From the IMG/VR virus record IMGVR_UViG_3300009155_000048, positions 43,135 to 107,134 of that record: a DNA stretch of 64,000 nucleotides; one strand, 5' to 3'. The notes below the pieces were generated by a model. That model did not search any database, was not told where the DNA came from, and saw only the letters and a list, made by a program, of their open reading frames with translations. A program made the translations under genes and the position numbers. Positions within the stretch are counted from its first letter, which is position 1; each line of letters opens with the position of its first letter. This document shows, in pieces, positions 4,189 to 64,000 of the stretch. The DNA comes from a virus.

Positions 4189-5283
4189 ATGAGAGTTAGA
4201 AGAAAGTTCCTACAATTGACCAGTCAGACAGTTCCATATGGAACAGAATCTAAAATTAGAAAATTTCTACCAAAAGGAATAAGTAAAGACCAACATGGTA
4301 ACTATTTTATGACAATTGGTGATAATTTCACCACTATGTTTACTTGCCACTTAGATACGGCTTGTAAATATGATAAGCCTGTTAAACACGTTCAAACAGA
4401 TAATCTGATAATGACTGATGGCTCAACCATCTTAGGTGCTGATGATAAAGCCGGAATGACCGTTCTACTCTATATGATTGAGAAAAAAGTACCAGGACTA
4501 TATTATTTTTTTATAGGTGAGGAAGTTGGGTGTATTGGTAGCTCAAACTTATCAATGACTTTTGATTGGACGAACATCACAAAAGTAGTCTCATTTGACC
4601 GAAGAGGCACCAAATCAATTATTACCGAACAGTTTTGTGGCAGATGTTGTTCAGATGAATTTGCTCAAGCATTAGCCGATGAACTAAATTCAACCGGTCT
4701 AGGATTAGAAATGGAACCAGATGATACTGGCATATTAACGGATTCAGCACAATTTGTTGATTTAGTTCATGAATGTACAAACATATCAGTTGGATATTGG
4801 AATGAACACACAACCAATGAGATACAAGATATTGAATTTTTATCTAGATTGTGTAGAGCCGTTGTTAAAATTGATTGGGAATCTCTTCCTATATTCAGAC
4901 AACCAGGTGATGATGATTGTGGCATCTGGGAAGAAGATGAAGTTGAAGTTCTTGATGATGAATATACAGAAAGTGTATTTACATATATCTCAGAAGATAG
5001 TGTTACTAAAAAAATGTATATATCTAAAACTTGGATAGAGTGTGAAAAAGACTTAATCAACAAGATGTTGTTACAAAAAGGATATACACCAAAGTTAATA
5101 ATTTGGGATGGCACTTCTTGTTATTGTCAAGAGCATGAGTCATATGATTTTATAGGAAATAGACAGGATTTAATAAATTTTATTCCCGAACTACAATATA
5201 TACCATATTCACATTTGAAGTCTAATGTTAAATTAGGTAAAGACTATACAAAACTATCAAAAATCGCCGAATATGCAAACTAA
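4189..5283 (+). CDS. M20/M28-family zinc peptidase
   Basis: CHLDT, GADDKAG, GEEVG, FDRRG, EHT; TATCTTTG element at 4156-4163. Confidence 0.85.
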   Translation: MRVRRKFLQLTSQTVPYGTESKIRKFLPKGISKDQHGNYFMTIGDNFTTMFTCHLDTACKYDKPVKHVQTDNLIMTDGSTILGADDKAGMTVLLYMIEKKVPGLYYFFIGEEVGCIGSSNLSMTFDWTNITKVVSFDRRGTKSIITEQFCGRCCSDEFAQALADELNSTGLGLEMEPDDTGILTDSAQFVDLVHECTNISVGYWNEHTTNEIQDIEFLSRLCRAVVKIDWESLPIFRQPGDDDCGIWEEDEVEVLDDEYTESVFTYISEDSVTKKMYISKTWIECEKDLINKMLLQKGYTPKLIIWDGTSCYCQEHESYDFIGNRQDLINFIPELQYIPYSHLKSNVKLGKDYTKLSKIAEYAN

Positions 5284-5854
5284 ATCTATTATACTTGACT
5301 TATATGGTACTTTATTATACTCCGAGTATAAAGCTAGACCTTATCTAAACTTATTTAAGAATATAGGTCTAACCAAAGAAGAAATGAACTATTGGGCGGA
5401 TAAAGTCATGACCAAAAATTATTCATATCTACAAGAGATTGTAGAAGAAATAAAACCAGGCCAATTTGTATATACATCACAATTAGAACATGATATAAAA
5501 TTAGAAATTGAGTCAACACACTTATTTGATGATACTATTCAAGTATTAGAAACTCTTTCTAAAAGGTATAAACTCTATCTATTATCAAATATTGCTACTC
5601 CATATAAAGAGTGTGTGTTTAATTTAGGTATTGATAAATACTTTGATAAGATATTCTTTTCCTGTGATATTGGATACAGAAAACCCCAACCCGAAGCCTT
5701 TGAAATGGTCATAAAACATAGCGGTTTACAACCTAAACAATTACTTATGATTGGGGATAGTCAGAGATCTGATTATGAAGGTGCCTTAAATTCTGGAGTT
5801 AAAGCAGTACTTAAAAACAAGCCTCTCAATCTGATACTATCAGAGATTAACTAA
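5273..5854 (+). CDS. HAD-superfamily hydrolase
   Basis: DLYGTL, LLSN, RKPQPEAF, IGDSQRSDY. Confidence 0.9.
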   Translation: MQTKSIILDLYGTLLYSEYKARPYLNLFKNIGLTKEEMNYWADKVMTKNYSYLQEIVEEIKPGQFVYTSQLEHDIKLEIESTHLFDDTIQVLETLSKRYKLYLLSNIATPYKECVFNLGIDKYFDKIFFSCDIGYRKPQPEAFEMVIKHSGLQPKQLLMIGDSQRSDYEGALNSGVKAVLKNKPLNLILSEIN

Positions 5855-6041
5855 GAATAATACCTGGATTTTTATATCCTTTTTGTTCTACAATCTCCAA
5901 TAGTTGATTAGGACTTAAATTAGTTTTATCCCAACCTTTCTTTCTTGCATATTCGGAAATAAATTTCTCTCTCAACATATTAACATCATCAGTTGATAAA
6001 TTGTTAGTTGATTTAATTAATTTTTCATTATCGCTTTGCAT
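5847..6041 (-). CDS. Small hypothetical protein
   Basis: ORF preceded by TAATATATA (minus strand, ~6066-6074). Confidence 0.7.
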   Translation of the reverse strand: MQSDNEKLIKSTNNLSTDDVNMLREKFISEYARKKGWDKTNLSPNQLLEIVEQKGYKNPGIILS

Positions 6042-6083
6042 ATTTACTTTTTATTTTTGTAAAAGTATATATTAAGAGTTTAA

Positions 6084-6116
6084 CCTTGGAAATTCCAAAA
6101 ATTTTCCATATATTTG
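6084..6116 (+). promoter_or_regulatory. Bacteroidota sigma70-type (early) promoter
   Basis: CTTG-N21-TATATTTG ending 4 nt before ATG 6121. Confidence 0.65.
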
Positions 6117-6120
6117 TAGT

Positions 6121-6642
6121 ATGGTTATCAAGATAAGAGGCATATTAGAATTTAGTCCAGAGGATGTGACCAGAAAACACAGAAATCAATCCTCTTGGAA
6201 AAGAGTTGCTATCATCAAAACTGATTGTGACTTAGACCGATACTATGCTTGGTTTTTAAAGAAAAGATTCAATCTAGAATTAAATAAGAATCTTAGAGGT
6301 ACTCACGTTACTTTTATCAATGATAAATTTGAAAAAGGTATATTTGACCAATTTGCTCCTCTTTTTAATGGTAAAGAAATAAATTTCTACATAGAAACCG
6401 AACCAAGATCTAATGGTGAGCATTGGTGGTTGAGAGTTCACTGTCCAGAAGCAGAGTCTATAAGAGAACTTATGGGTTTAAGTAGAGATCCATACTTTGG
6501 ATTACACTTAACATTAGGACACGCTAATGAAAAATACATAGCTCACTCTGAATACATTACCGAACAATGTAAGAGATTTGAGATAATTTCTAACGAACCT
6601 CGTAGACCACTCAATGAGCATGAAATAATAGAGTTCAAGTAA
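6121..6642 (+). CDS. 2H phosphoesterase (Acb1/57B-like or RNA-repair type)
   Basis: Two HxT motifs: GTHVTFI and GLHLTLG. Confidence 0.75.
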   Translation: MVIKIRGILEFSPEDVTRKHRNQSSWKRVAIIKTDCDLDRYYAWFLKKRFNLELNKNLRGTHVTFINDKFEKGIFDQFAPLFNGKEINFYIETEPRSNGEHWWLRVHCPEAESIRELMGLSRDPYFGLHLTLGHANEKYIAHSEYITEQCKRFEIISNEPRRPLNEHEIIEFK

Positions 6643-6672
6643 ACAAACTTGAACTCTTTTTATATCATGACT

Positions 6673-7467
6673 ATGCCAGAGATTTCGGAAGTTAGAATAA
6701 TGTCTGATTTTATTAATCAGAATTCCAAGAACAAATTTAATAAAGCCTTTCACGTTGAAAAAGGAAATATTCCTACACAATTCCTTGATAAAGAATTTGA
6801 TATAAAATCTGATTCTAGAGGAAAAGAACTATTACTATTCATTGATGATTTACCTATTCATGTCTTTATGGGAATGAGTGGCAATTGGAAATATACTCCA
6901 ACTGAAAAATGGAATGAAACTAAATTCACTAGGCTTAGACTAGATGACGAAACCGGACACTCACTATTATTATATGGTGGGTTTATGGGACCAAAATACT
7001 CGGTTGGTAAACCATTCACCGGAACCAAAAGAGGACCAGATCCAACTAAAGAGTTTGATGATTTCAAATCAAATATCTATAAGAATATAGACAATAAAGC
7101 TTTTGATAAACCTATCTGCGAAACTTTACTTAATCAAGAGTATTTTAATGGAATTGGCAACTATATCAGAAGCACCTTAATATTCTATGCTGATGTGAAT
7201 CCATTTGAAAAAGCAAGAACTATATTACAAAATTCTGATAGAGTACTTAATTTATGTAAGGATGTTCCTCTTAAATCTTATGAATTGAACGGTGGGCAAC
7301 TCAAAGATTGGAAATCACCATTTGATACCGACTCTACTGAATTTAAGAAATGGGTATTTTATCAAAAGGGATTGGCTTGTACCGATAAAACCGGTAGAAC
7401 ATTCTGGTTTGATGAGAAATGGAAGGACTATTGTCCATATGAAATTAAGAAAAAACGTGGAAAATAA
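6673..7467 (+). CDS. Fpg/Nei DNA glycosylase/AP lyase, NEIL1-like (zincless finger)
   Basis: MPE N-terminus sets the start at 6673; RGKEL, GMSG, H2TH LLNQEYFNGIGNY, GRTFWF. Confidence 0.9.
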   Translation: MPEISEVRIMSDFINQNSKNKFNKAFHVEKGNIPTQFLDKEFDIKSDSRGKELLLFIDDLPIHVFMGMSGNWKYTPTEKWNETKFTRLRLDDETGHSLLLYGGFMGPKYSVGKPFTGTKRGPDPTKEFDDFKSNIYKNIDNKAFDKPICETLLNQEYFNGIGNYIRSTLIFYADVNPFEKARTILQNSDRVLNLCKDVPLKSYELNGGQLKDWKSPFDTDSTEFKKWVFYQKGLACTDKTGRTFWFDEKWKDYCPYEIKKKRGK

Positions 7468-7927
7468 CTTTATTTATAGTGATAGAGGTGAGGGTAAAAC
7501 TGAATTTATAACAAGATTAGCCAATGATTTATATAGAAAAGGTGGTTATAAAATAGATTTTTATTCACTAACATCAGAGAGTTTACCGAATTTAGAAAGA
7601 GGAATTTCATATGATATTTACCCAAATAATATTGTAAATAGAAATTACATTTTAGACCTCAAAAAAGAAAAGATAAAAGCAGGTAAACTAGATATTCTTT
7701 TCATAGATGATATAGATTACTTAGATAATTGGGATGATATATTATCACTAAATTGTGATAAATTTATCACTGTTGATATATTGGAAGAAAGAAATTACCC
7801 AAAAAGAAGCTGTAATATGGTAAAATTAAAAGGAAACTATAATCTTTTTCACTTACCTGATATAGAATATAATAGCTTCTTAAAACCTTATTTAAGAGAG
7901 AAAAAATTAGACATATTATTAAAATGA
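7439..7927 (+). CDS. Small P-loop NTPase-like protein with C-terminal REKKLDILL motif
   Basis: Walker A-like SDRGEGKT, Walker B ILFIDD; start at 7439 (or GTG 7457) avoids a long overlap. Confidence 0.65.
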   Translation: MKLRKNVENNFIYSDRGEGKTEFITRLANDLYRKGGYKIDFYSLTSESLPNLERGISYDIYPNNIVNRNYILDLKKEKIKAGKLDILFIDDIDYLDNWDDILSLNCDKFITVDILEERNYPKRSCNMVKLKGNYNLFHLPDIEYNSFLKPYLREKKLDILLK

Positions 7928-8754
7928 TCAAAGCAGATAAATACTACATTCAGAATCTTGTAAATATTATGAGTGATGGAACATTTGATGAAAACCCAAG
8001 ACCAAAATGGTCTGATGGAAACCCAGCTCACTCAAGATTCATTACTCAAGTATTTGAGGAATATGACTTATCAAAAGGTGAGTTTCCAATTACTACATTG
8101 AGAAATACTGCAATTAAAACCGGAATTAAAGAAATACTTTGGATTTATCAAAAACAATCAAATTCATTAGAGGTTGCCAGAGAGATGGGCATTAATTGGT
8201 GGGATGAATGGAACATTGGGGATGGAACAATTGGTCAAAGATATGGCGCTACAATAAAAAGATATGATTTGGTAAATAAAAGACTAACCTCATTAAAAGA
8301 AGATCCATTTTCAAGAAGACATATTATTAATATGTATCAAGAATCGGATATGGAAGAAACAAAAGGATTACACCCCTGTGCATTTGAGACACATTGGTCA
8401 GTTAGGAAAATAGATGGTGACTTCTATTTAGATTTAACATTAATTCAAAGAAGTAATGATTATATAATGGCTGGGTATATCAATAAGATTCAATATGTTG
8501 CATTACAAATGATGTTTGCATCCCACTTAGGATATAAAATTGGTAAATTCTGTCATTTTGTTCAAAATCTTCATGTTTATGATAGACATTTTGAGGCATT
8601 AAATGAAATATTAGATAGACGTGGTCTAACTAATCAACCATATATTTCATTGAAATCTGATAAAAACTTTTACGATTTCACAATAGATGACTTCGAGATA
8701 CATAACATAGATGGTATTAAGAAGTTAAACTCTAATTTAGAAATAGCTGTTTAA
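7924..8754 (+). CDS. thyA: Thymidylate synthase
   Basis: FPITTLR, SRRHI, LHPCAF, QRSND, NLHVYDRH. Confidence 0.95.
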   Translation: MIKADKYYIQNLVNIMSDGTFDENPRPKWSDGNPAHSRFITQVFEEYDLSKGEFPITTLRNTAIKTGIKEILWIYQKQSNSLEVAREMGINWWDEWNIGDGTIGQRYGATIKRYDLVNKRLTSLKEDPFSRRHIINMYQESDMEETKGLHPCAFETHWSVRKIDGDFYLDLTLIQRSNDYIMAGYINKIQYVALQMMFASHLGYKIGKFCHFVQNLHVYDRHFEALNEILDRRGLTNQPYISLKSDKNFYDFTIDDFEIHNIDGIKKLNSNLEIAV

Positions 8755-8759
8755 AACAA

Positions 8760-8786
8760 AAAAGTCCTTATATTATAAGGACTTTT
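8760..8786. terminator. Bidirectional intrinsic terminator
   Basis: aaaagtccttata / tataaggactttt hairpin between convergent genes. Confidence 0.75.
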
Positions 8787-8795
8787 ATTCTAAAT

Positions 8796-9089
8796 TTAGA
8801 AAGTTACTGAATCTCCACTATCTGGGAAAATTCCGGTATTATAACCCAATTCTGGGAAACTAATAACTAAATTTTTAGCACCAGATGGGGTACCGCCAAT
8901 AGCAGTTCTTGAGAAAGTAACAGACTCAGTTCCATCTAATGTAGTTCCTAATATGGTAAAATTCACACTATTAGTAAGTCCACTAAGTGTAGCTGGTCCT
9001 CCTCCTCTTACGTGAAAAGCTTGGTAGTTCACAGTTAATACGTTCGCTGAATACGTAGCCGAAGTGATGTGGATGTAAGGTCTTGACAT
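8796..9089 (-). CDS. 97-aa beta-rich late protein, candidate capsid decoration protein
   Basis: Start MSRPYIHIT at 9089 behind a late promoter; directly downstream of the major capsid gene. Confidence 0.6.
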   Translation of the reverse strand: MSRPYIHITSATYSANVLTVNYQAFHVRGGGPATLSGLTNSVNFTILGTTLDGTESVTFSRTAIGGTPSGAKNLVISFPELGYNTGIFPDSGDSVTF

Positions 9090-9210: not shown

Positions 9211-10962
9211 TTAGTTAAGTAATCCAGGAGTATCAGACACTTTAATTGTCATATACTGCTTTTGAGGATACCAACCCACTTCAGCAACTGCGTATCTAGA
9301 TCTTAACAACATACGTGGAGCGAATGTAGCTTCAGAGATGATACTGATTGACTGAGCCATTAAGTAAGGTACGAAGATGATACCTGGTTGATCAGGATTG
9401 TTCTTTCTACCAATAACGATACGGTTATCGTTATACTTCATGTAAGGGTCAACATAGATTTGGATATCACCGATTTGACCAACTGGATACAATTGACCAG
9501 AACCGTTGATTTTAGATTTAGTTGGATTAATAGTATATCCAGCGACATCCATTAAAGCTGCAGCTAAACCTCCGTTAGTTACTGCGAATTGTGCAGGACC
9601 AACACGACCTTCTGTTGCAATATAGTTAGAAGCGTGAACCATCTTAGTGATCAACTTACGTTGAACAGCGTGTGTAGTTTCACCACCAACTTGAGTTTGA
9701 GTGTAAAGAGTATCTAAGTCAAAAATAGTTGGACTAGAGATGTTATTGCTATAAGTAGCACCAGATGCTGGAGCTGAAGATCTGTTCAAGTCACCCATTT
9801 CAAAGATTTTAGATACAATTTGTTTAGAAATTGTTTGAGACAATTCGTTAACAAGGATAGATTCCATTTTTTGAACGATATCCATACCAGTGTTAGCTTT
9901 GATGTCTTCAATTTCAGTTCTTCTAAGAGCTGAAGATACTTCAATAGTACCAACCGCGATAGACTTAGTAGAAACTTTTGGTCCAATTACACCAGCATAA
10001 GTCAAATCATCTTCAGCACGACTCATTGGGTATCTACCATTCTGAGAGTTTGTAGAGAAGTTTGTAGAGAAACCTGGTAATTGATCTTCTAATGCAGAAA
10101 TCATAGTAACAGTTAAGTTAGAAGTACTTGAGAAAGTAAGACCAGGAATAGCTGTTAATTGAGACTGGATTGTAGCAGAAGGAGTAAATGTATTTTGAGT
10201 TTGGTCAAAAGCTGCTGCTGCTGGGTTATAAACGTTAGCAATTGTTTGTGAACCAATAGTAGCATTTGCTTGTCTAAATGCTCTGAAGATAGGAAGACCA
10301 TCGATACGAGAGTAACCTAAGAATTCAAGAACGTTAGCTTTAGAACCACTAATAGATGTACCTGTTGAAACAGATGCAGCATAGTTACCTAAAGTAAAGT
10401 AAGCCTTAGTACCAGTAGCACTTTGGAAACCACCAACTGTTAAAACGATATCAGTTGAAGAAATTGCAGTTGAAACTTTAGTACCAAACGCACCACTTTG
10501 TAACATACCAGCTGTATCAGTTGAGTTAGTTGATACGATTTTAAATACTTGAGGTGCACCATATGTAGTATCAACATCATCATATTGGAAGTCAATATAC
10601 AATAAGTCTAATTTTGGACCTGGTGAAGGTTTTACAGCAACTAAATCTAAACCGATTGTTTGAGCTGCGATTTTCATAGCAACTGGTAATAAGTTTTGAC
10701 CTAAGTCACCAGAACCAGCCGAACCTGAGTTACTTGACCAGTTAGTACCAAGTGTAGTACCTGATAAAGTTGATGGTTGAGGAGATGTAACTGCACCCAT
10801 ACCTTGGATTGTTGCGTTTACATACGCATTTTCATTGATAGAGTGGAACTCTGCGTATTCTGACATCCAATCAAGTCTGTCTTCACCAGCAACGCCCATG
10901 TTCTCTAATACTGGAGACCACTTCTTCAATGCTTTTTGTTTGTCTATTCTAATGTGTGACAT
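9211..10962 (-). CDS. Major capsid protein (T4 gp23-like)
   Basis: KKWSPVLE, QTIGLDLVAVKP, IYVDPY, PGIIFVPY, FAPRMLLRSRYA; strong codon bias. Confidence 0.93.
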   Translation of the reverse strand: MSHIRIDKQKALKKWSPVLENMGVAGEDRLDWMSEYAEFHSINENAYVNATIQGMGAVTSPQPSTLSGTTLGTNWSSNSGSAGSGDLGQNLLPVAMKIAAQTIGLDLVAVKPSPGPKLDLLYIDFQYDDVDTTYGAPQVFKIVSTNSTDTAGMLQSGAFGTKVSTAISSTDIVLTVGGFQSATGTKAYFTLGNYAASVSTGTSISGSKANVLEFLGYSRIDGLPIFRAFRQANATIGSQTIANVYNPAAAAFDQTQNTFTPSATIQSQLTAIPGLTFSSTSNLTVTMISALEDQLPGFSTNFSTNSQNGRYPMSRAEDDLTYAGVIGPKVSTKSIAVGTIEVSSALRRTEIEDIKANTGMDIVQKMESILVNELSQTISKQIVSKIFEMGDLNRSSAPASGATYSNNISSPTIFDLDTLYTQTQVGGETTHAVQRKLITKMVHASNYIATEGRVGPAQFAVTNGGLAAALMDVAGYTINPTKSKINGSGQLYPVGQIGDIQIYVDPYMKYNDNRIVIGRKNNPDQPGIIFVPYLMAQSISIISEATFAPRMLLRSRYAVAEVGWYPQKQYMTIKVSDTPGLLN

Positions 10963-11047: not shown

Positions 11048-13159
11048 TTAAAGATTTTTGAATCTCTCCATAATTGCAGTTACATCACCATCAGACAATT
11101 TGTCTTCTTGAATTAACGCATTATGTTCAACTAATTTTTTAGTTACAGATTCATTTTTCTTGAATGGTCTTGTTAACCAGAAATGTTCAACTTTTGATTC
11201 AGTTGTTAAGTCTGGGTACAATCTAGCTTGCGATAAGATAGACTTTTTAGAAGATTCATTCAATTGTGACCAGATTGGCTTAATGTTTTCAGGCATCAAT
11301 CTAATCAATCTCTCTTCAAGAGATTCATTTTTAACAGATAACGCTTCTCCAATCATCTTTAACACATCAGAACTAGTGAAATAACTCTTTTCGTTTATGT
11401 AAAGTTTTACTTGTTCTTGCTCCTCGTTTGTTAAGCTGTAATAGCTATCAACTTGGGACTTGTTTAAGAATTTTAAGAAATGTAAATCATTGGACTCAGA
11501 AACTTTACGTTTTTTAGCTTCTTCAATTAATTTATCAATTTGTTGAGATAATTCTGTATCAGAATTGCCTTCGAATTTAGATTCTTCTCCATAAGGATTT
11601 TCCTCTTCTTTTTCATGTGCCATTGGCATTCCCGGCATTCCTTCTTCTTCACCATATGTACCTTCTTCTGAAGCTACTAAGTGAGGCATACCTTCTTCTT
11701 CCTCTTCTTCATATGCCATTGGCATTCCTTCTTCTTCTGAAGCAATCATTTCAAATCCTACTTCTTCTAAAGTTGGGAATGAATTACCTTTACTTTCATT
11801 TAATTTATTACCATTTAATTTCTCAGCAATTAAACCCGCGTAAGAAACAGTTTTATCTAAGTTTTCAGCAATATACTCAGAGTAAGCGATGTTATCATCT
11901 AAGTGTTCAGCAATGTATTCAGAGTAAGCGATGTTACCTTCTACATGCTCAGCTAAATATTCAGAATAAGCAATAGAGTTATCTACATGCTCAGCGATAT
12001 ACTCAGAGTAAGCAATATTCTTATCTAAGTTTTCAGCGATGTACTCAGAGTAAGCAATATTCTTATCTAAGTTTTCAGCGATGTACTCAGAGTAAGCAAT
12101 ATTCTTATCTAAGTTCTCAGCTAAATATTCAGAATAAGTGATATTCTTATCAACATTCTCAGCTAAATATTCAGAGTAAGAAATATTTTTGTCTAAGTTT
12201 TCAGCTAAGTACTCAGAATAAGTGATGTTCTTATCTAAGTTTTCAGCTAAGTATTCAGTGTAATTAACAGCCTTTTCTAAGTTTTCAGCTAAATAATCAT
12301 TGTGAGAGATCAACTTATCAGTAGTTGATTTCAATGATTTATTTTCATTAACCACAACTTGAACTTTTTCAGCTAAGTAATCTAAATACTTAACCATTTG
12401 AGAGTTAGTCTTATTAAGTTCTTCATAGTACTCAAGAAGTTGCTCTAATTTTTTCGGATTGATGTTACCTGATTTAATAGCAGATTGTGCAGCTTTCTTA
12501 GTAGTAGCGATTTCATTAATCAAATACTTAGAATAGTCAGCTAATTGCTGTTTGGTAACGAAGTCATTCTGGTTCATATTGAATAGTTCGTTTATTTTTG
12601 ACTCATCGGACATTTCATATATCCTAAAGTTAGTTTTATTGGAAAACCCATATGATTCATTTATGGATTTCATTCTAGCTGAAGCAAATCCTGGGTCAGC
12701 AACAATGTCGTAAGTAAACAATTTCTTTAAAGTAACAGTACCATCTGATTCAGTGATACCAGCAGCTCTTGAAGAAACGAATACAGGACAACCATCATCA
12801 ACTAAAGATTTAGCTTCTTTACCCCAATAGGTATTCAATAATTTAATCTCACCCTCAACACGATTAGATTCTTTAACATAAGAAGCTTTTCTAATAATGT
12901 GTGAAGCGCGAGATAATGATGTATCAAATACATCTGGGTGATCGAATTCACCATAAACAACACCCATATTTTGAATACGGTCATTAAGTTCTTCTAAACA
13001 AGGAATAAACTTATCTGCAGTGTAGATTCTTTCATTACGGTTTTTAACACCGAACTCAGTAAAAATACCACCTAAGATATAGTCTTTCTTGCCACCAGAA
13101 ACTTGAACGCTCTCCTTTAATGGGTTTGAGTTGTTTTCAACGATTAAGATTGGTTTCAT
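11048..13159 (-). CDS. Prohead protease (gp21-like) fused to a scaffold/core (gp22-like) region
   Basis: KNRNERIY, GEFDHP, VSSRAAG, TYDIVADPGF, then coiled-coil repeats and an acidic linker. Confidence 0.9.
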   Translation of the reverse strand: MKPILIVENNSNPLKESVQVSGGKKDYILGGIFTEFGVKNRNERIYTADKFIPCLEELNDRIQNMGVVYGEFDHPDVFDTSLSRASHIIRKASYVKESNRVEGEIKLLNTYWGKEAKSLVDDGCPVFVSSRAAGITESDGTVTLKKLFTYDIVADPGFASARMKSINESYGFSNKTNFRIYEMSDESKINELFNMNQNDFVTKQQLADYSKYLINEIATTKKAAQSAIKSGNINPKKLEQLLEYYEELNKTNSQMVKYLDYLAEKVQVVVNENKSLKSTTDKLISHNDYLAENLEKAVNYTEYLAENLDKNITYSEYLAENLDKNISYSEYLAENVDKNITYSEYLAENLDKNIAYSEYIAENLDKNIAYSEYIAENLDKNIAYSEYIAEHVDNSIAYSEYLAEHVEGNIAYSEYIAEHLDDNIAYSEYIAENLDKTVSYAGLIAEKLNGNKLNESKGNSFPTLEEVGFEMIASEEEGMPMAYEEEEEEGMPHLVASEEGTYGEEEGMPGMPMAHEKEEENPYGEESKFEGNSDTELSQQIDKLIEEAKKRKVSESNDLHFLKFLNKSQVDSYYSLTNEEQEQVKLYINEKSYFTSSDVLKMIGEALSVKNESLEERLIRLMPENIKPIWSQLNESSKKSILSQARLYPDLTTESKVEHFWLTRPFKKNESVTKKLVEHNALIQEDKLSDGDVTAIMERFKNL
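11801..12304 (-). repeat. About 12 tandem 42-nt (14-aa) coding repeats YSEY(L/I)AENLDKNI(A/T/S)
   Basis: Visible in both DNA and protein. Confidence 0.95.
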
Positions 13160-17867: not shown

Positions 17868-19019
17868 ATGAGAAAAATAACATTTCATTTAGAGTATATT
17901 TGGTTAGACGGTAATTATCCTCAACAAATACGTTCAAAAACAAAAATAGTGGAGAAAGAAATCACCGACGATATTATTGAAGATATTCAAAATAGTGAAA
18001 CCGGAGATGTACGCGAACCATTCTATAATGATTGGAAAAAAAATCCAAAATCATTACCAATGTGGAACTTTGATGGATCTTCCACTGGCCAAGCCGAAAC
18101 TTCTAAATCAGAATTGTTATTACATCCAGTAAATATTTTCATGGATCCAGTTAAACACAATGGATTTATAGTTATTTCTGAAGTATATAATACCGACATG
18201 ACACCACATCATACTAATAAAAGAGCCAAAATGGTTGAAATGGTTGAAAAGTATGACCAAGAAACAATGTGGGGATGGGAGGCTGAGTATTTCATTTATG
18301 ATAAAAAAACTAATAAACCACTTGGATGGCCAACAGAAGGATATCCTAGACCACAAGGACCATTCTATTGTGCAGTTGGTGGTAATAATGTTGATGGACG
18401 CGAATTTGTCGAAGAACACACAACATTATGTGAAATTACAGGTTTGAAAATTTCTGGAATCAATGCTGAAGTTGCTCTTGGTCAATGGGAATATCAAATT
18501 GGACCAGTTTATGCAATAGATGGTGCTGACCAAATGTGGATTTCTAGATTTTTATTACAAAGATTGTCTGAAAAATATGGATATTTTATTGAATTAGAAC
18601 CTAAACCATATAAAGGAAATGATTGGAATGGATCGGGAATGCACGTTAACTTCTCAACTAAAGAAATGAGAGATGATTTGAAAAACAAGAAAAAGTTAGT
18701 TATTGAAGCTTGTGAAAAATTAGGACAAAAAGTAGAAGAACATATTGCAGTATATGGACCAAACAATGAAGCTCGTTTAACTGGATCAAATGAAACTTGT
18801 TCAATTAAAGAATTTAGATATGGAATTGGAGATAGAACAGCTTCAATTCGTATTCCTTCTTCAATTGAAGACAAAACAACTCCTGGATACTTAGAAGATA
18901 GAAGACCAGCTTCAAATGGTGATCCATATGAAATTGTAACTAGAATGGTCAAAACCATCTGTGGTGGAAAGTTAGATAAAAAATCTGATAAGAAAAAGAA
19001 GAAAGAACAAGAAGCATAA
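17868..19019 (+). CDS. glnII: Glutamine synthetase type II (auxiliary metabolic gene)
   Basis: LEYIWLDG, WNFDGSST, PQGPFYC, GINAEV..GQWEYQ, DWNGSGMH, YLEDRRPASNGDPY. Confidence 0.93.
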   Translation: MRKITFHLEYIWLDGNYPQQIRSKTKIVEKEITDDIIEDIQNSETGDVREPFYNDWKKNPKSLPMWNFDGSSTGQAETSKSELLLHPVNIFMDPVKHNGFIVISEVYNTDMTPHHTNKRAKMVEMVEKYDQETMWGWEAEYFIYDKKTNKPLGWPTEGYPRPQGPFYCAVGGNNVDGREFVEEHTTLCEITGLKISGINAEVALGQWEYQIGPVYAIDGADQMWISRFLLQRLSEKYGYFIELEPKPYKGNDWNGSGMHVNFSTKEMRDDLKNKKKLVIEACEKLGQKVEEHIAVYGPNNEARLTGSNETCSIKEFRYGIGDRTASIRIPSSIEDKTTPGYLEDRRPASNGDPYEIVTRMVKTICGGKLDKKSDKKKKKEQEA

Positions 19020-56327: not shown

Positions 56328-59300
56328 TTATAATGTTGGTGTTGTAATTAATGCAATTGGCTCAAATGGCCCAATTGGATCAATGTATCTAATAGGATCT
56401 GCCATATCATTCAATCCTCTTATCTCATAATTCTTTTTAGAGGTATAAATCTGACCATATCCATTATCACTCGTTACCTCAATAGTAATAAATGGATCTA
56501 TATTAGAATCAATAGAAAAATTGTAAGAATGTGTGCCAGTTCTATACTCATTCAATGTTTGAACAGGAACAAAATTTAAATTCTTCCATTCGGTGATATC
56601 AATCCATTTAGCATAAGATCCATTATTTAGAACATCATAATAAGGAGTATATACAGAAGCAGTTCCAAATTGTACAAATGATGATTGTGTACCCACATAC
56701 TCATAGATATTTCTATCATAACTTACAATTTGACCCAATTGATAATCAGTTTTAGTGTCCCATAGCGGAGCTTCATCATATTTTTTTGGATTTTTAATTT
56801 TATTATTAACTATTACTGACTCATATACTTTACCATAATAAGTAACTCTATCATCTATTGTATAAGTAGTAAATGGATTCCATTCTTTATAAGTTTTATA
56901 AGTTCTAATCTTAATTGTAAAGTAATCTGGAGCAGAAGAAGTAGCAGTCATAAAATCAATATGACAAGTATAAACAGTACTTGAACTATTAACCGGCATC
57001 AAATAAGCTTCATTTAAATGAAAGTCAACTGGAGTCATAGTTTGTCTCATATTTATAATCTTAGTATCATAATTTCTATGTGAAATAGTATTAATACCAA
57101 CAAAGTCAGCTCTACCAGTTATGTCCAATATTCTATGTGTAATTGGTATTACATTCTTTTGTAACCAATATTTCAATCCCTGTAATTTCATAATAACTTC
57201 AGCTAATGAATACATTAACACATTATTACCTTCTTTATCGGTAATCTTATAAGTTAAATTGAATAGATTCGTGTCCTCAAAATTAGGATTAGGCATTGTA
57301 TGTTTAATAAAATCATTGACGGTCCAACCCTCAACTGTATTATCAAAAATGTCCGGAATCTCCACCTTAAATAACTTAAAGAAATCCGGCGAGTTTGTAT
57401 TAATGTTTCTATAGTATTCATATAATTCTAAATCATTATATCCAAAATAGTTAATAGCATTAATGATAGCCTTATATGATCCAACATAAGGGAAAATCTC
57501 ATGTCTAACCATTAACATTTCCTTTCTCTTTTTATTTAAATATGTCCAATCTATACCTTGTTCATTAATATCATATTCCTTAAAAATATAAGTATCATCT
57601 GGAGCAACCAACTGACCAGTGTTTGATAATTCTATTTTATATCTAACATCTTCTATCTCAGTTTGTCCAGAGATATTAAATCTACCCAATTCTTTATCAA
57701 TCACCTTGAACGTAGTAGTTAAGTAAGTTGTTTTATTTATCTTTGGATAATCATCAATTTGAGTAAATTCATCAAAAATAACATCAACAAAATCAACTAC
57801 AATTGACCTAGTATAAACTTGTCTAATTTTGAATACTTTACCATTATTGACAGCCACATACTTATTATTCTTAATATTTGTGTAATCTGATACATTAACT
57901 TTAAGTAACTGACTAGCTTTCAACCCTCTAGTAACACCACTTGAATTCTCTGTGAAGACACTAGTAGAGTTAGCATTTAAGTAAATTACACCATAATCAC
58001 CATTAACACTATCTTTTACAAACTTAAATTGTAAAATATCAGAGTTAGCACTAGTAGTCTTAATAGTAAATGATATATCTTCTCTTTTATATAAAACTAA
58101 TTTAGAAGCCATTGGGCCCTCATTATCAGCTCTAAATCCAATAAATATCTCCATTGGTTCCGGAACTATTGATAAATTATCTTCCGAATCAACATGATCT
58201 AATGTATGAACAATCTCATCAAATATAGTTTGTTGATACTCCGACAAAGAAATAAAATCTAAATTCTTATTTGGATTTTTATTTAATGATATTGTTGTTA
58301 GTGGTTTTGGTCCAGTGTATGCGTAAGCACCAGTTGTTGTCAATTGTTCACCAGAGAAATCATATAAGAACATCTCAGGATATTCATCAGTTTCCCACTT
58401 CCAAACATATTTAACATATGGGTCATTATTGTAGTTTTCTCTTGGTTTTCTTAGATACTCTCTTGTTTTCAACCAAAGTGTTGTATGTGGAATATAATCA
58501 TCATGTAAAGTGCCATAATTAGTGTCAACCACATTTGAATAAGTTAATCCATTAAGAGTTATAGTAGAATTTAGTGTAACACCGATTTCAATAATTGAAT
58601 TCAATGATGGTTGAACACCAAACATACTTTTTCTATCTGGATTATAAATCATTTTAGTTATACCAGTTGAGAAAGACTCATTGTGTTTTATAGAACCATT
58701 CATCGCATCTAATACAAATACTTGATTAGAATTCTGAGCGGCCATATAGACATCACCATCATACTGACTAAATGCCAATTTACCATAATTAGAAGTTAAA
58801 ACACTAGCAACCAAATTACCCGACAAATCGATACTAGTATATTGAGAACCCTGTGATACTTCAATATCACCAGTCATATTATTGAAAACTAAATCATTAA
58901 ATGTCACATTTGTTGCAATGGTGGATATTGTTTGAGTAGCACCACTATTTAAGTTAATCAAATTAGAAGCACCAAACACATATACAGAAGTATTGACCGG
59001 TTCAAAGAATATACCAGGTAACAATCCAGTGATACTATAAGTTGTTTGTAATGTTCTAGATGAACCATCAATTCTACTTAAAATGTCATTATCCTGTGTA
59101 ATATACATATCATTTTCACTATCATTAAATACCATTTTTAAAGTATTACCGGAAGTGGTAACATAAGTAGTTCTAGTAGAAGTAAAATTAGTAGCCGACC
59201 ATATATCAACTCTTGTTTGTGAGGAATAACTAACATAAACATCACCATTAGATGTGTTAATAACACAATCGCTTGGTATAGATGATAAAGAAATAGAAGC

Positions 59301-62300
59301 TTGAACAGTATTAATAATTGGATCAACTACAAATAAAATATTAGTAGATAAACAATATAGGTAATTATTAACCGGATTAAATACAATTAATAACGGTGTT
59401 CCGATGCTTGGTAAATTAACAGTAGTAATAATTGTTGCTAAAACAGAATCAAATACCGTAAGTTTATCACCAAGAACATACATACAACTTGTTAATTGTA
59501 AGTAAATCATATCAACAATATTACTGTTACCACTCATAATATATGAAGTAACATTATAACTATTAGTAGAAGCGTGTGACAAACTAAATGATTGTGTAAA
59601 TGATTGTGATGCGAATTGACCACCTCCAGGAATAACAGGTGGTGTAATTATAGGCAAACAACCAGTTGCGCCAAATCCACCACTAAATGCAATACTAGCA
59701 TATGGCGAAACATCACATCTTGGGTCATTAGTTCCCCAAAATGGGCCTTGATAACTTAATACTAAATTAGTAGGACCTAAATATAAAATGTTATATTCTT
59801 GGTTATCATAAGGTCTAAGTGTGTTGTTAATAGAAACAACTTGTCCAGTTGCAAATGGATCATCTTCAAAACCAAAACTAACCGTATCAGGTAATATTAT
59901 TTCATTTGATGTAATAGTTGCTCCAAAATTTCCTTTTATCTTATTGATTATTTTATATTGATCTATTCCAGGAAGAGATGTTTTACCAGTTCTAATAGAG
60001 TAAACTAACCTTTGGTCTTGCTTCTTAACATTAAATATTAACATAGAATTTACATTAGAAACATAAATACCATAATCATCCAATTCTTGTGAATGTGTTT
60101 CTACCCAATCTGAAATTGCTGTATTTATATCAGGAACACCACTACTAACAGAAACAACTTGATCATAAGATCTACCATTAATTGCAATAGATAAGTAGTT
60201 ACTCATATCAGTAAATATAACTTCAGAATGTTGAATATAAAAATCAGCGGTAGAACCAACCTCAATTGTAAATTGCAAAGGAACATTTGGATATTCAGTT
60301 CTAAGATTAATTGAGTTATAATAAATAGAACTTGAATTACCAACATATTGTAAGTTGGCAATAATACCCAATGAGACTAATCTAGCATAATTTTTGACCA
60401 ACCAGTTTCTTAAAGTTCTATCAATTGTTCTTTGTAAATTAACGTTTAGACCAACATATATCCAATCAATTTGTTCTTGATATTCTTGACCATTTATTTT
60501 AATAATAAATCCAAATTCATCTAAATCAGTAAATACTATGTTGTAATTAAAGTTCACATTTGTATTTTGATTTACTTCTGGAACTAAAATCTCTTCAATA
60601 CCAACATTTTGTTCATACACCTTTGTTGTTGTTCCATAGCTATATGTACCAAGTAGCCCAGCATAAAAATTAACCTCAGCATACAAGCTTGGATAAATTA
60701 AATCCGCATGTAACTTGTAGTTTTTGTAATACAAATCAATATTGAAAAACTTAAAATCATTAACATAATTAGCAGCCACCGAAGCCAGTGTGATAGCATT
60801 ACTTTGTGTAAATGCTTGTGTATAGTATATTTTATTTGTTGTTAAATGAATTTCAGCAGATAATAAAGTTTCAACATTTAAAGTTGTTGTAACCGGTAAA
60901 TATGTAGGAGCTGACCAATATGTAGTATTATCTGGAGTAATAGATGATGTAGCACTCCAAGTGTGTGCCTGAATACATTGATAAATCTTATTATTCCAAA
61001 TAACTTGTGATTGAGTAGCATAATAAGTAACATTAGTATTACCTAAGAATCTAGAAACAGAATCCACAACAATAGAGTTAGTATTAACTGTTGATGATGG
61101 TATAGTAAACTCAGTGCCGGGTTTAAGAACATTTGGAACAGTAGATGAGAAATATATTTGATTTCCACTTAAATTTAATCCACCAGTATAAACCAACGGT
61201 AATTTGGTTTTCATAATTAATTCAATCAAAACATCTTGACTCTGAGTAAATACACCAATACCTAAATCATACTTGTAGTATGACTTATCAAAAATATTAA
61301 CATTATTAATAGTAACAACACCATCATTATTTTCAGTGTTAATCAATGTTAATTTTTTACCATTAAAATATTTAGAGTAAAAATCTGGTTCAGACCAAGA
61401 AGATAATAAGTTATTCAAACTTTGATCCACATAATTATAAACACCAATAGAATTTAATCCACTAACTGTTACATTCTGATAAGAAGTTGTCAAACCAATT
61501 TGAGAACCATATGATGAGTTAAATGTTTGATTATTAATAGAACCAATAATCAAAACACCATTCTTTTTAGTCTCTAAAACGGTATAAGACTGATTTGGAT
61601 TAGTAAATTCAAATATTGGCGTATTGAATAAAATCTGTGTACCTACTGGGTATTTAGATTCAAAATTATCACCATAAATCCACTTAGAATAAAAATTAGG
61701 ATCGGTGTTTACCAGTTCAATAGATGTAACCGATTGATTCATATATGAGTTACCAGTTATATTAAATCTATACTCATTAAACAATTGAAACTTATCTAAT
61801 TTAAGATTACCGGGACTTTCATATTCAAATGCCGGAACACTCTCAAATAAGTAAAGAGCTTGTGTTTTGAAAACATCATTTGAATTTTCAAAGAAAATCA
61901 AATCACCTTCCCATCTTTTGCTACCAGGTAACCATCTAAAATTTAAGGCATCTCCTTCTTTATTAAAAAATATTAATGGGCTCTCCTTAGCTTTACTATA
62001 AAACTTAACATATCTTTCATCTTTTGGAACATTTAAATCTATACCACAATCATCACCAGTTTGGAATGTTTCTGGTATTGCACCTGTAGTATTTGAGTTT
62101 GGAATTTTTACAAACCAATAAAAAGTTGTATTATAAGGTAAAGAATCTAAATATATTTGTGCACCATTTACATTTCCATATATTGATGGAAATGTATAAT
62201 CACTTAAATAAAACTCATAATCACCACTATATCCAGTAGGACCAGTCCAACTAAATGTTGCTGAACTACAGTTTACTTGAACTTGTAAATTGGAAGGTCC

Positions 62301-62882
62301 TAAAATAGGAACTATTGAATAATCAAAAACAGTTGGCGTAACTGGATAAGAAACATTAATAGCTAATGGGTTAGCAGCGTATGATATATTTGCTCCAGAA
62401 ACTAAATTAAAACTATAAGATGTAGAGTCATTCAATACAACATTATCGGGAACAACGGCAATATAAGAGCTGGTATATCCAAGTGATGGGATAGTATCCA
62501 TAGCAATCCAAAAGTAATTACTTGTTGTTAAACCAGTTGATATTAATGGAACATTAAGTGACGACCAATAACCAGAACCACCACCGGAATTTCTATCATT
62601 ATTATTTGAATAGTAATCTGGATAATATCCAATTTGACTAGCGGTTGAAAATACAGAACTTGTTCCAGTATAATATAATCTAAAATAAGATATATCATTG
62701 TATGCAATAGAAGCAAATTCATCATGTAAAGCATTTGAAGCGTTTACAAAATAAATTTCAGATAAATTAGATGTGGTAGCGCTATCTACAACAATTTGCA
62801 TTCCTACTAATGGAACATTTATATCACCTGGATATGTATTGCTAATATTTGGATATACTATGTTATTTGATACAACCGACAC
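56328..62882 (-). CDS. Very large baseplate/tail structural protein (BNR_assoc_N-like, YVTN-like propeller, CBM5/12-like modules)
   Basis: NYFWIAMD; FNPVNNYLY-type repeats; WNPFTTYTIDDRVTYYGKVY; GSYKAIINAINYFGY wedge-like motif; late promoter at ~62903-62912. Confidence 0.7.
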   Translation of the reverse strand: MSVVSNNIVYPNISNTYPGDINVPLVGMQIVVDSATTSNLSEIYFVNASNALHDEFASIAYNDISYFRLYYTGTSSVFSTASQIGYYPDYYSNNNDRNSGGGSGYWSSLNVPLISTGLTTSNYFWIAMDTIPSLGYTSSYIAVVPDNVVLNDSTSYSFNLVSGANISYAANPLAINVSYPVTPTVFDYSIVPILGPSNLQVQVNCSSATFSWTGPTGYSGDYEFYLSDYTFPSIYGNVNGAQIYLDSLPYNTTFYWFVKIPNSNTTGAIPETFQTGDDCGIDLNVPKDERYVKFYSKAKESPLIFFNKEGDALNFRWLPGSKRWEGDLIFFENSNDVFKTQALYLFESVPAFEYESPGNLKLDKFQLFNEYRFNITGNSYMNQSVTSIELVNTDPNFYSKWIYGDNFESKYPVGTQILFNTPIFEFTNPNQSYTVLETKKNGVLIIGSINNQTFNSSYGSQIGLTTSYQNVTVSGLNSIGVYNYVDQSLNNLLSSWSEPDFYSKYFNGKKLTLINTENNDGVVTINNVNIFDKSYYKYDLGIGVFTQSQDVLIELIMKTKLPLVYTGGLNLSGNQIYFSSTVPNVLKPGTEFTIPSSTVNTNSIVVDSVSRFLGNTNVTYYATQSQVIWNNKIYQCIQAHTWSATSSITPDNTTYWSAPTYLPVTTTLNVETLLSAEIHLTTNKIYYTQAFTQSNAITLASVAANYVNDFKFFNIDLYYKNYKLHADLIYPSLYAEVNFYAGLLGTYSYGTTTKVYEQNVGIEEILVPEVNQNTNVNFNYNIVFTDLDEFGFIIKINGQEYQEQIDWIYVGLNVNLQRTIDRTLRNWLVKNYARLVSLGIIANLQYVGNSSSIYYNSINLRTEYPNVPLQFTIEVGSTADFYIQHSEVIFTDMSNYLSIAINGRSYDQVVSVSSGVPDINTAISDWVETHSQELDDYGIYVSNVNSMLIFNVKKQDQRLVYSIRTGKTSLPGIDQYKIINKIKGNFGATITSNEIILPDTVSFGFEDDPFATGQVVSINNTLRPYDNQEYNILYLGPTNLVLSYQGPFWGTNDPRCDVSPYASIAFSGGFGATGCLPIITPPVIPGGGQFASQSFTQSFSLSHASTNSYNVTSYIMSGNSNIVDMIYLQLTSCMYVLGDKLTVFDSVLATIITTVNLPSIGTPLLIVFNPVNNYLYCLSTNILFVVDPIINTVQASISLSSIPSDCVINTSNGDVYVSYSSQTRVDIWSATNFTSTRTTYVTTSGNTLKMVFNDSENDMYITQDNDILSRIDGSSRTLQTTYSITGLLPGIFFEPVNTSVYVFGASNLINLNSGATQTISTIATNVTFNDLVFNNMTGDIEVSQGSQYTSIDLSGNLVASVLTSNYGKLAFSQYDGDVYMAAQNSNQVFVLDAMNGSIKHNESFSTGITKMIYNPDRKSMFGVQPSLNSIIEIGVTLNSTITLNGLTYSNVVDTNYGTLHDDYIPHTTLWLKTREYLRKPRENYNNDPYVKYVWKWETDEYPEMFLYDFSGEQLTTTGAYAYTGPKPLTTISLNKNPNKNLDFISLSEYQQTIFDEIVHTLDHVDSEDNLSIVPEPMEIFIGFRADNEGPMASKLVLYKREDISFTIKTTSANSDILQFKFVKDSVNGDYGVIYLNANSTSVFTENSSGVTRGLKASQLLKVNVSDYTNIKNNKYVAVNNGKVFKIRQVYTRSIVVDFVDVIFDEFTQIDDYPKINKTTYLTTTFKVIDKELGRFNISGQTEIEDVRYKIELSNTGQLVAPDDTYIFKEYDINEQGIDWTYLNKKRKEMLMVRHEIFPYVGSYKAIINAINYFGYNDLELYEYYRNINTNSPDFFKLFKVEIPDIFDNTVEGWTVNDFIKHTMPNPNFEDTNLFNLTYKITDKEGNNVLMYSLAEVIMKLQGLKYWLQKNVIPITHRILDITGRADFVGINTISHRNYDTKIINMRQTMTPVDFHLNEAYLMPVNSSSTVYTCHIDFMTATSSAPDYFTIKIRTYKTYKEWNPFTTYTIDDRVTYYGKVYESVIVNNKIKNPKKYDEAPLWDTKTDYQLGQIVSYDRNIYEYVGTQSSFVQFGTASVYTPYYDVLNNGSYAKWIDITEWKNLNFVPVQTLNEYRTGTHSYNFSIDSNIDPFITIEVTSDNGYGQIYTSKKNYEIRGLNDMADPIRYIDPIGPFEPIALITTPTL

Positions 62883-62961: not shown

Positions 62962-64000
62962 TTAGATAGTAATAGAAGTCTCAATGAATTGAATGGAATC
63001 AGCAGTAAAATAAACATGACCCGGAGTTACACCTTGTTTATAATAAGCATTTGTAGCAACATCCGCAACTAACCAGAAGTAGTTAGTAACTGTACTACCA
63101 AGTTCACCGACTAGATTTATATCATTAGTATTATAAACTACCAGATTAGGATAAGATGCTGTTCCAACTAAAATAGAATCATTATAAGTAGAACTTGTAC
63201 CAGTAAAATATAATCTAAAATTAGTAACCAAATCCTTATCTTCCAAGACTTGGTCATAAGAATCATTTGTAAAATTAAAATTCCAAAATTTTTGTGGATA
63301 TCCATAACCACTCACACCAACTTCTATTTTAAATAATGGTATATCTTTTTCACCTGGGTAACTATTTCCATTACTATCAGTAAAGATATCAACAGCATTT
63401 ACTACCATTTCATCAACAATTTCAATATTACCACTTGGATCTGAAACTGTTGGAACATAATTCCCACTATTTTTACCATCAAAATCTAAACTATCAAAAG
63501 TAGCATCAACAATATTTCCAAGTGTGGCACTTGGTGAAATACTATAAGCAACCCAAAAGTAATTATCTCCTGGTACAAGTCCATATGGTGGATTTCCACC
63601 ACTAGTCAATGATATTGTGTAATTGCCACTTGGCGCACTTCCAAGTGAACCAAAAACACTCACCGAGCTAAATGATTCATCATTACCAGTGCCATATATC
63701 ATAACATCAGATATATCATTTATAGCATCTGTTGATCCAGTTATTCCCAAGTATAAATTACTAATCCAAGGATAAATATCAAGACCAGAAGTAAAAAATA
63801 AAGTACCAGTTGTACTGACTTTAATTTTAAGTATAGGCACAACAGAAGAACCCGGTTTTGTATATCCAGTTACTTGCTCACAAGTAGATGCTGTATATGA
63901 AATAAAATTATAAGGAGTTTCACCAACCCCACTATTCGGACTTATTGAATAAGTGACACCACTAATATTAATGTAATCAGCGGTTGCGTCTAACACATTA
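62962..64000 (-). CDS. Structural protein with tandem BNR_assoc_N-like domains, 5'-truncated by the window edge
   Basis: LVPGDNYFWVAYSI and TNYFWLVAD; frame open to the window edge. Confidence 0.7.
   Translation of the reverse strand, partial: NVLDATADYINISGVTYSISPNSGVGETPYNFISYTASTCEQVTGYTKPGSSVVPILKIKVSTTGTLFFTSGLDIYPWISNLYLGITGSTDAINDISDVMIYGTGNDESFSSVSVFGSLGSAPSGNYTISLTSGGNPPYGLVPGDNYFWVAYSISPSATLGNIVDATFDSLDFDGKNSGNYVPTVSDPSGNIEIVDEMVVNAVDIFTDSNGNSYPGEKDIPLFKIEVGVSGYGYPQKFWNFNFTNDSYDQVLEDKDLVTNFRLYFTGTSSTYNDSILVGTASYPNLVVYNTNDINLVGELGSTVTNYFWLVADVATNAYYKQGVTPGHVYFTADSIQFIETSITI

Follow-up and report, generated by a model that had tools for sequence, protein, structure and literature searches.

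The question raised by this locus is whether a repair gene carried by an uncultured virus belongs with animal NEIL1 rather than with the bacterial Fpg/Nei glycosylases, as the original prediction had proposed from the sequence. The gene (6673..7467, plus strand) lies in a window of 64 000 nucleotides, which is the whole stretch of DNA analysed here (positions 43 135 to 107 134 of IMG/VR record IMGVR_UViG_3300009155_000048). On the basis of sequence, fold and selection it encodes a NEIL1-type glycosylase/AP lyase of 264 amino acids plus stop, referred to here as P0001. The open frame in the program-made list runs from a TTG at 6649 to 7467 on the plus strand. The translation of 6673–7464 begins MPEISEV, and since MPE is the N-terminus of all of the relatives compared, ATG 6673 is taken to be the functional start, which exposes the catalytic proline. 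All of the motifs that had been quoted for the protein are found in this translation, namely SRGKEL (residues 48–53), GGFMG (102–106), NKAFDKPICETLLNQEYFNGIGNYIR (141–166), PFEKART (177–183), LCKDVP (194–199) and DKTGRTFWF (238–246), and the human NEIL1 strings that had been given alongside them (RGKEL, KAFDRPICEALLDQRFFNGIGNYLR, PFEKARS, LCHSVP and DRHGRTIWF) are borne out by HMMER alignment to PDB chains. P0001 contains four cysteines (148, 195, 235 and 253). As these do not have a CxxC...CxxC layout, and two of the four vary within the family (alignment A1), the four-cysteine zinc finger is absent, in agreement with what had been claimed.

Sequence comparison places P0001 closest to NEIL1. 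In a phmmer search of PDB chains human NEIL1 was matched with an E value of 3.8e-29, compared with 1.9e-7 for the best bacterial enzyme, 7e-5 for E. coli Nei and 4e-3 for NEIL3; judged by these scores, the match between P0001 and NEIL1 is far beyond chance. When a family profile built from 28 members was searched against solved structures, NEIL1 came first (E = 6e-38), followed far behind by E. coli Nei (1e-9), Fpg (4e-7), Arabidopsis FPG (5e-7), Mimivirus Nei1 (2e-5), NEIL2 (3e-4), NEIL3 (5e-4) and Mimivirus Nei2 (6e-4). The Pfam model for the Fpg/Nei N-terminal domain (PF01149) scores 27.0 bits on P0001 against a cut-off of 25.5, and that for the H2TH domain (PF06831) scores 30.3 bits, which is under its cut-off of 34.7. 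Every NCBIfam equivalog model for bacterial Fpg/Nei gives at most 51 bits, with cut-offs of 203–252; the individual scores and cut-offs are 47.5 and 203 bits for Fpg TIGR00577, 43.9 and 212 bits for Fpg NF002211, and 51.1 and 252 bits for Nei NF007763. Pfam PF09292 (Neil1-DNA_bind; cut-off 25 bits) does not match P0001 at E values up to 10; its scores are 28.3 bits for P0131, a phage protein of the canonical group described below, 30.0 bits for the NEIL1 of the amoebozoan Planoprotostelium and 87.2 bits for monkey NEIL1.

The predicted structure leads to the same assignment. An AlphaFold2 model of P0001, computed on the family-profile alignment, has a mean pLDDT of 92.1, and the best 50 Foldseek matches listed are all human NEIL1, with a TM score of about 0.8 and 30% identity. 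Human NEIL1 is represented by PDB entries 1TDH, 4NRV, 5ITQ–5ITY, 6LWA–6LWR and 8FTJ. Superposition with VIA-align gives Z = 26.5 and an r.m.s. difference of 2.3 Å over 245 aligned residues (about 30% identity), with residues 2–256 of the model overlying residues 2–290 of NEIL1, zincless finger included. The two-domain fold is present, with Z scores of 20–26 to NEIL1, MutM and Fpg over residues 2–253/256; the values for MutM and for the Mimivirus enzyme MvNei1 are 22 and 19.4, respectively. Bacterial Nei and Fpg/MutM share the superfamily fold and the Pro/Glu/Lys chemistry with P0001, but the Cys4 zinc finger is theirs only, the structural-alignment identity is 14–22% and the family-profile E values are 1e-9 or worse.

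Residue correspondence was taken from monkey NEIL1, which is colinear with the human protein, and shows that the catalytic residues of NEIL1 are retained in P0001. Pro2 and Glu3 (6676..6681, plus strand), the N-terminal nucleophile and general acid, are invariant in alignment A1; the pair is present in 52 of 52 window-clade rows, in all bacterial rows and in 18 of 20 eukaryotic rows, the remaining two being gapped at the N-terminus. Lys51 (6823..6825, plus strand), within GKEL, corresponds to NEIL1 Lys54 and is also invariant. Met68 (6874..6876, plus strand), within FGMSG, is equivalent to the void-filling residue Met81 of NEIL1 and is a methionine in 52 of 52 window-clade rows; around it Met66, Asn71 and Trp72 are, like Met68 itself, invariant in the phage lineage in A1. 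Asn176 and Tyr263 of NEIL1 are conserved as Asn163 and Tyr230, and the two proteins also have RGP in common. The H2TH segment (7135..7170, plus strand), located by the Pfam H2TH match and the alignments, carries the motif FNGIGNY[LI]R, which is near-identical in eukaryotic NEIL1. The zincless-finger β-hairpin (7360..7422, plus strand) was assigned from the secondary structure of the model and the structural alignment, with strands at residues 234–237 and 243–246 in the model; its Arg242 corresponds to NEIL1 Arg277, is invariant in the alignment and lies in the shared sequence GRT[IF]WF. The C-terminus of P0001 follows 18 residues past the finger, whereas NEIL1 continues into a disordered interaction tail at its C-terminus, some 100 residues long in animals, and contains an insert of about 22 residues (around 200–222); both are missing from P0001, a protein that, unlike eukaryotic NEIL1, is encoded by a phage and has no PF09292 match.

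The most marked departure from NEIL1 is in the wedge motif. In the alignments, residues G102-G-F-M-G-P107 (6976..6993, plus strand) replace D116-I-R-R-F-G121 of NEIL1, and equivalents of the Arg118/Phe120 wedge pair are absent from P0001. In NEIL1 these two residues (Arg108 and Phe110 in Fpg) insert into the helix as a wedge and make contact with the orphan base. The replaced motif, which had been pointed out at the outset, proves to be a shared derived trait of the sub-lineage to which the window belongs: G-x-[FYW]-[ML]-G-P-[KR]-[YF] is found in 15 of 15 window-clade tree rows and in all of the best 120 of 745 clusters. The nearest outgroups (P0124, P0125 and P0129) retain D.R[RC]F[AG]KW, and 272 other proteins besides these retain D-x-R-[RK]-F-[GAS], as do other phage NEIL1-like proteins, which have FVDVRRFGKW. 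Since the nearest outgroups and the 272 other proteins keep this motif, its replacement is probably a single ancestral change that arose once, in the ancestor of the window lineage. A further difference lies in the loop NGGQLKDWKSPFDTD (7288..7332, plus strand), which aligns with the lesion-recognition loop of NEIL1 and is strongly conserved in the phage family. Here Lys242 (the Lys/Arg242 editing site) and Tyr244 of NEIL1 are replaced by Gly208 and Leu210, the Tyr244 position being leucine in 50 of 52 window-clade rows and tyrosine in 17 of 20 eukaryotic rows. In the alignment E. coli Nei likewise has no Arg/Phe at the D-x-R-x-F-G position; it relies on a Gln-Leu-Tyr loop in another part of the protein and is a repair enzyme despite the missing residues. 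Because the Arg/Phe equivalents are missing and PF09292 is unmatched, the handling of DNA by P0001 may differ from that by NEIL1; opposite-base handling probably does, and perhaps substrate range as well. The motif change might conceivably alter lesion specificity, as had been suggested.

The gene is present exactly once in each of four genomes with a completeness of 95% or more, and it is under purifying selection, as seen from the one pair compared (dN/dS of 0.07 against a 96%-identical copy in locus L006). In our view, it is likely that this is a working single-copy NEIL1-type glycosylase/AP lyase that would clear oxidised bases from the large genome of the phage; the enzyme activity, substrates and biological role set out here are those that we infer. 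Enzymes of the Fpg/Nei superfamily use an N-terminal proline as nucleophile, form a Schiff base and carry out β,δ-elimination. By this chemistry, the initiator methionine of P0001 would be removed and Pro2 would attack C1' of the flipped-out damaged base to form a Schiff base, with Glu3 and Lys51 aiding catalysis, after which β,δ-elimination would cut the strand. The DNA backbone would be held by the H2TH motif and the zinc-free β-hairpin with Arg242, while Met68 would occupy the gap left by the flipped base. The targets would be oxidised pyrimidines, ring-opened purines or hydantoins in the very large genome of the phage itself, with the damage arising in sunlit lake water or during infection. 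By analogy with T4 endonuclease V, such an enzyme might serve as its counterpart for oxidative damage in a virus of sunlit fresh water.

The carrier is a bacteriophage, as had been supposed. The window encodes a Gp23 capsid protein, a T4 portal protein (Gp20), a T4-type large terminase, a prohead-protease-like protein and a sheath-like protein. The gene for the T4 Gp23-type major capsid protein (9211..10962, minus strand; Pfam PF07068, E = 1.8e-27) lies 1.7 kb downstream of the glycosylase gene and identifies the contig as that of a T4-like phage. The IMG/VR record is 107 kb in length with an estimated completeness of 19% (CheckV), which implies a genome of several hundred kilobases. DNA of the window region was found in freshwater and lake metagenomes, and the carrier is an uncultured freshwater T4-like jumbo phage. 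One contig, possibly from the window's own source sample, is identical over 5200–9012; another, from a 2022 run with a different study code (P5) and labelled only 'metagenome', is 98% identical. Two lake metatranscriptome libraries contain only a few contigs of about 150 bases that overlap or adjoin the gene, including one that derives from a relative with 90% identity; contigs of this kind cannot show transcription.

The family to which P0001 belongs is large. A word-indexed search of 5.8 billion proteins returned at least 745 close clusters at E ≤ 1e-3, of which the best 120 are 60–98% identical to P0001 and about 260–275 residues in length; some of these 120 are labelled 'endonuclease VIII-like 1' by the JGI pipeline. 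Pattern scans located 62 IMG/VR loci of the window lineage. With a profile-free search of 1.84 billion representatives, 891 matches were obtained. Its long named matches are animal NEIL1 proteins (sea urchin, tuatara, oyster, monkey and sponge) and protist proteins (Mastigella, Pelomyxa, Planoprotostelium, Ploeotia, Paulinella and one MMETSP marine transcriptome sequence), and among its many short unnamed matches is a larger second group that has the canonical FVDVRRFGKW. This canonical group comprises 329–456 confirmed relatives on IMG/VR contigs and more than 1000 protein clusters, many of them with PF09292. Gp23 was found in 30 of 35 IMG/VR records of the window lineage and in 30 of 35 of the canonical group, or 60 of the 70 records checked, and the NCLDV capsid was found in 0 of 35 in each case (0 of 70 overall). 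The nearest ESM Atlas clusters are 78–100% viral among the few members with a taxon record and mostly belong to Uroviricota, the exception being rank 13, which is assigned to Nucleocytoviricota. In deposited phage genomes, tblastn with P0001 found nothing, and with a canonical member it found host-type Fpg only (Bacillus, Listeria and other records); the carriers of host-type Fpg include the Bacillus phages SP-10 and Nachito. Patterns specific to the window lineage have no relative in 185 579 prokaryote species, represented by one genome each; canonical NEIL1-like genes, which these patterns would pass over, may still occur in bacteria. A plasmid search gave weak bacterial-type matches only.

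A maximum-likelihood tree was calculated with IQ-TREE (LG+C20 by PMSF) from 93 rows and 266 columns, comprising 11 bacterial Fpg/Nei sequences from named records, 34 phage-contig sequences, 11 named eukaryotes and 37 unnamed representatives. NEIL2, NEIL3 and MvNei1/2 were compared by E values and Z scores only, and a Dyadobacter sequence was excluded for its long branch. Bacterial Fpg/Nei and the NEIL1-like supergroup are set apart by a split with support of 100/99 and a branch of 1.4 changes per site, in a tree whose bacterial outgroup has long branches and a different composition. The original prediction had named clustering inside ordinary bacterial Fpg/Nei as the outcome that would count against it. 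This outcome did not occur, and sequence, fold and tree agree with its central claim that P0001 is nearer to NEIL1 than to bacterial Fpg/Nei; the homology search that it proposed also gave NEIL1 ahead of all other enzymes. Within the supergroup a single clade of 21 rows (100/99) takes in all of the named eukaryotes, the 15 rows of the window lineage make up another (100/100) and the canonical phage sequences are spread over several further clades, with a backbone that is a polytomy. Going by these sequences, the window lineage is one branch of a radiation without resolved order and is not, among the phage lineages, the closest to eukaryotic NEIL1. When all of the NEIL1-like rows that are not eukaryotic are forced into one clade, the cost is 11.8 log-likelihood units (AU p = 0.305). 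An all-phage-and-unknown clade is thus not rejected, so the tree favours neither phage nor eukaryote as the donor in any transfer between them. It had also been suggested that a phage homologue would bear on the origin of the NEIL1 clade; the phage family does bear on this question, but with the backbone polytomy and the AU result it names no donor.

The genes around the glycosylase recur in related phages. Upstream lies a 2H-phosphoesterase-like gene with two H-x-T motifs (6121..6642, plus strand; a weak Pfam 2H-SAK match, phrog_12204), which precedes the glycosylase in 38 of 62 related loci, and an 11 bp hairpin followed by a T-run (6630..6657, plus strand), identified by consensus match only, spans the stop codon of this gene shortly ahead of the start of the glycosylase. 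The recurrent order is a peptidase-like gene (phrog_4191), a small reverse ORF, the 2H-phosphoesterase-like gene and the glycosylase, this upstream order being found in the same 38 of 62 loci, often followed by thymidylate synthase (22 of 62) and the capsid gene (16 of 62). In the window, thymidylate synthase is encoded at 7924..8754 (plus strand; NCBIfam NF002495, 339 bits, cut-off 327). A HAD nucleotidase-like gene is also among the neighbours, and none of the few neighbouring genes scanned is a base-modification gene. In genome G000 and four near-complete genomes, the PNK 3'-phosphatase, Endo IV and T4 DenV families were unmatched, the HhH-GPD family gave one sub-threshold match (17.5 bits in G060, against a cut-off of 26.2) and an ExoIII-type gene was present in one of the five, such that no AP endonuclease, 3'-phosphatase, Nth-type or DenV gene is consistent across them. 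An MBD4-type neighbour is accordingly not seen here. The steps after cleavage would presumably be completed by host enzymes or by unrecognised phage enzymes.

Four other readings of the gene were weighed against a repair enzyme of NEIL1 type. Foremost among these is retargeting of the NEIL1 fold and chemistry, whose new substrate might, for example, be single-stranded or fork DNA, a modified base that is specific to the phage or installed by the host, or the DNA of the host or of a competitor. The wedge motif and the Tyr244 equivalent are both changed, with the new forms tightly conserved in the lineage, and this would be expected of a new target, as would the early-type or nucleotide-metabolism neighbours (2H phosphoesterase, HAD nucleotidase-like gene and thymidylate synthase) and the lack of consistent phage-encoded downstream repair enzymes. 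However, the thymidylate synthase scores above the cut-off of the model for the ordinary enzyme, base-modification genes are absent from the few neighbours scanned, and E. coli Nei is a repair enzyme that has also dispensed with Arg/Phe at this position. Furthermore, the canonical phage relatives keep the NEIL1 motif, from which the ancestral role was probably NEIL1-like, and we consider retargeting to be unlikely. The loss of the wedge motif, together with the weak Pfam scores, could also be read as the mark of a catalytically dead DNA-binding relic, but the invariance of Pro2, Glu3, Lys51, Met68, Asn163 and Arg242 and the low dN/dS make such a relic highly improbable.

The remaining two readings concern where the gene came from. 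Phages such as SP-10 and Nachito do carry host-type Fpg, and P0001 might in the same way be an ordinary bacterial Fpg or Nei gene recently acquired from a host. We give this very little credence, as bacterial enzymes are matched at least 20 orders of magnitude worse than NEIL1, the scores fall far under all of the NCBIfam equivalog cut-offs, there is no Cys4 finger, the tree split is well supported and the lineage-specific patterns are absent from the prokaryote species scanned. Acquisition of a bacterial gene is contradicted by each of these lines (scores, missing Cys4, tree and prokaryote scans). That the closest named relatives are eukaryotic, and that one nearby ESM Atlas cluster is assigned to Nucleocytoviricota, might instead point to a eukaryotic or giant-virus gene on a mis-assembled or misclassified contig. 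Against this, a T4-type capsid gene lies close downstream, many independent contigs show the order glycosylase–(ThyA)–capsid, 60 of 70 related records carry Gp23 and none the NCLDV capsid, and the region is spanned in two DNA runs with different study codes, the first of which is possibly the window's source sample; we regard an error of this kind as extremely improbable. A working NEIL1-type glycosylase encoded by a phage accordingly remains the reading that we prefer.

Two sets of proteins help to place this NEIL1-type enzyme among known systems. The canonical phage NEIL1-like proteins (P0131 and loci L080–L239) resemble P0001 in length, fold class and catalytic residues, occur on Gp23-bearing IMG/VR contigs and fall in the same tree supergroup, but they keep FVDVRRFGKW, many pass the PF09292 cut-off and they are about 35–45% identical to P0001. 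Mimivirus Nei1 (MvNei1, L315; PDB entries 3A42, 3A45, 3A46, 3VK7 and 3VK8) is an Fpg/Nei enzyme encoded by a virus; its finger is zincless, and it has been described as a NEIL1 counterpart (PMC3188539). It shares its viral Fpg/Nei character and zincless finger with P0001, but is more distant kin than NEIL1 by both profile E value (2e-5 versus 6e-38) and structural Z score (19.4 versus 26.5), and its carrier is a giant virus of amoebae rather than a phage. A bolder proposal is that NEIL1 passed directly between phages and eukaryotes, for instance to an early eukaryote from a T4-like phage, and that the window lineage fills the gap in a third way, with neither the Arg-Phe wedge nor the Gln-Leu-Tyr loop of Nei, giving a new orphan-base or substrate preference. 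We put this forward tentatively, as a possibility that we ourselves find doubtful.

In the literature consulted NEIL1 is treated as an enzyme of animals whose single viral counterpart is found in Mimivirus. The published Fpg/Nei phylogeny has nine clades, none of them from phage (PMC3188539), and full-text searches of the literature found no paper on phage NEIL1-like enzymes. The nearest non-eukaryotic kin of NEIL1 found here are encoded by uncultured T4-like giant phages and form a very large family, which is nearer to human NEIL1 than is the Mimivirus enzyme and is absent from the deposited phage genomes searched. The origin of the zincless NEIL1 branch can now be tested with real sequence diversity. 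The family also provides a natural experiment in which the Arg/Phe wedge has been kept by one phage lineage and replaced in a sister lineage that comprises at least 745 clusters, and comparison of the two informs the part that the wedge plays in lesion search and opposite-base selectivity. As small, tail-less and zinc-free homologues of NEIL1, these proteins may be more readily crystallised and used as reagents.

Upstream of the glycosylase gene (window 6673–7467), the immediate neighbour on the plus strand (6121–6642) encodes a 2H-phosphoesterase-like protein of 173 residues with two H-x-T motifs, GTHVTF and GLHLTLG. Its match to the Pfam family 2H-SAK is weak, and it also matches phrog_12204, a family of unknown function. 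A gene of this type is conserved as the upstream neighbour in 38 of the 62 related loci. Candidate roles for the product are RNA-end healing and an Acb1-like anti-CBASS activity. Further upstream, the plus-strand gene at 4189–5283 encodes a 364-residue protein with a strong match to phrog_4191, annotated as 'peptidase' (E = 3e-73); a Pfam search of this product returned no match. Genes of the phrog_4191 type lie two to three genes 5' of the glycosylase and are likewise conserved in 38 of the 62 loci. At its 3' end, the glycosylase gene shares its final 29 bases with a small P-loop-like ORF of about 160 codons (7439–7927, plus strand), which gave only faint DnaA/AAA matches. This ORF is not a conserved neighbour, being found beside the glycosylase in one of the 62 loci.

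Many of the canonical phage NEIL1-like proteins share an additional C-terminal tail, W[DC][HY]YSG[LM]P[SN]P..Y, encoded at loci L160, L175, L179, L181, L186, L196 and others. This tail is absent both from NEIL1 and from the lineage of the window protein.

We note two further occurrences of the Fpg/Nei superfamily. In the amoebozoan Pelomyxa schiedti, residues 1–231 of a 791-residue protein named 'uracil-DNA glycosylase' (P0236) form a NEIL1-like domain; two glycosylases may be fused in this protein. The Dyadobacter chenhuakuii (Bacteroidota) plasmid NZ_CP099631.1 (L078) carries two Fpg/Nei-family genes side by side, at 401–1183 and from 1257 onwards. The first product lacks a Cys4 finger at its end (…GSGRTYYTKSQTLY), shares only 25% identity with the window protein and lies on a very long branch in the tree.

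Adjoining the capsid gene, the minus-strand gene at 11048–13159 encodes a 703-residue protein in which a weak N-terminal prohead-protease (S77) match is followed by a long repeat-rich stretch; it may be a protease–scaffold fusion. Structural genes also flank a phage-encoded glutamine-synthetase-like gene (17868–19019, plus strand; Pfam Gln-synt_C, E = 4e-18). A role as tail fibre or in host recognition is probable for a 2184-residue protein (56328–62882, minus strand), which carries a carbohydrate-binding CBM_5_12 module close to the C-terminus, and for the product of the next gene, which is BNR-neuraminidase-N-like (62962–63996).
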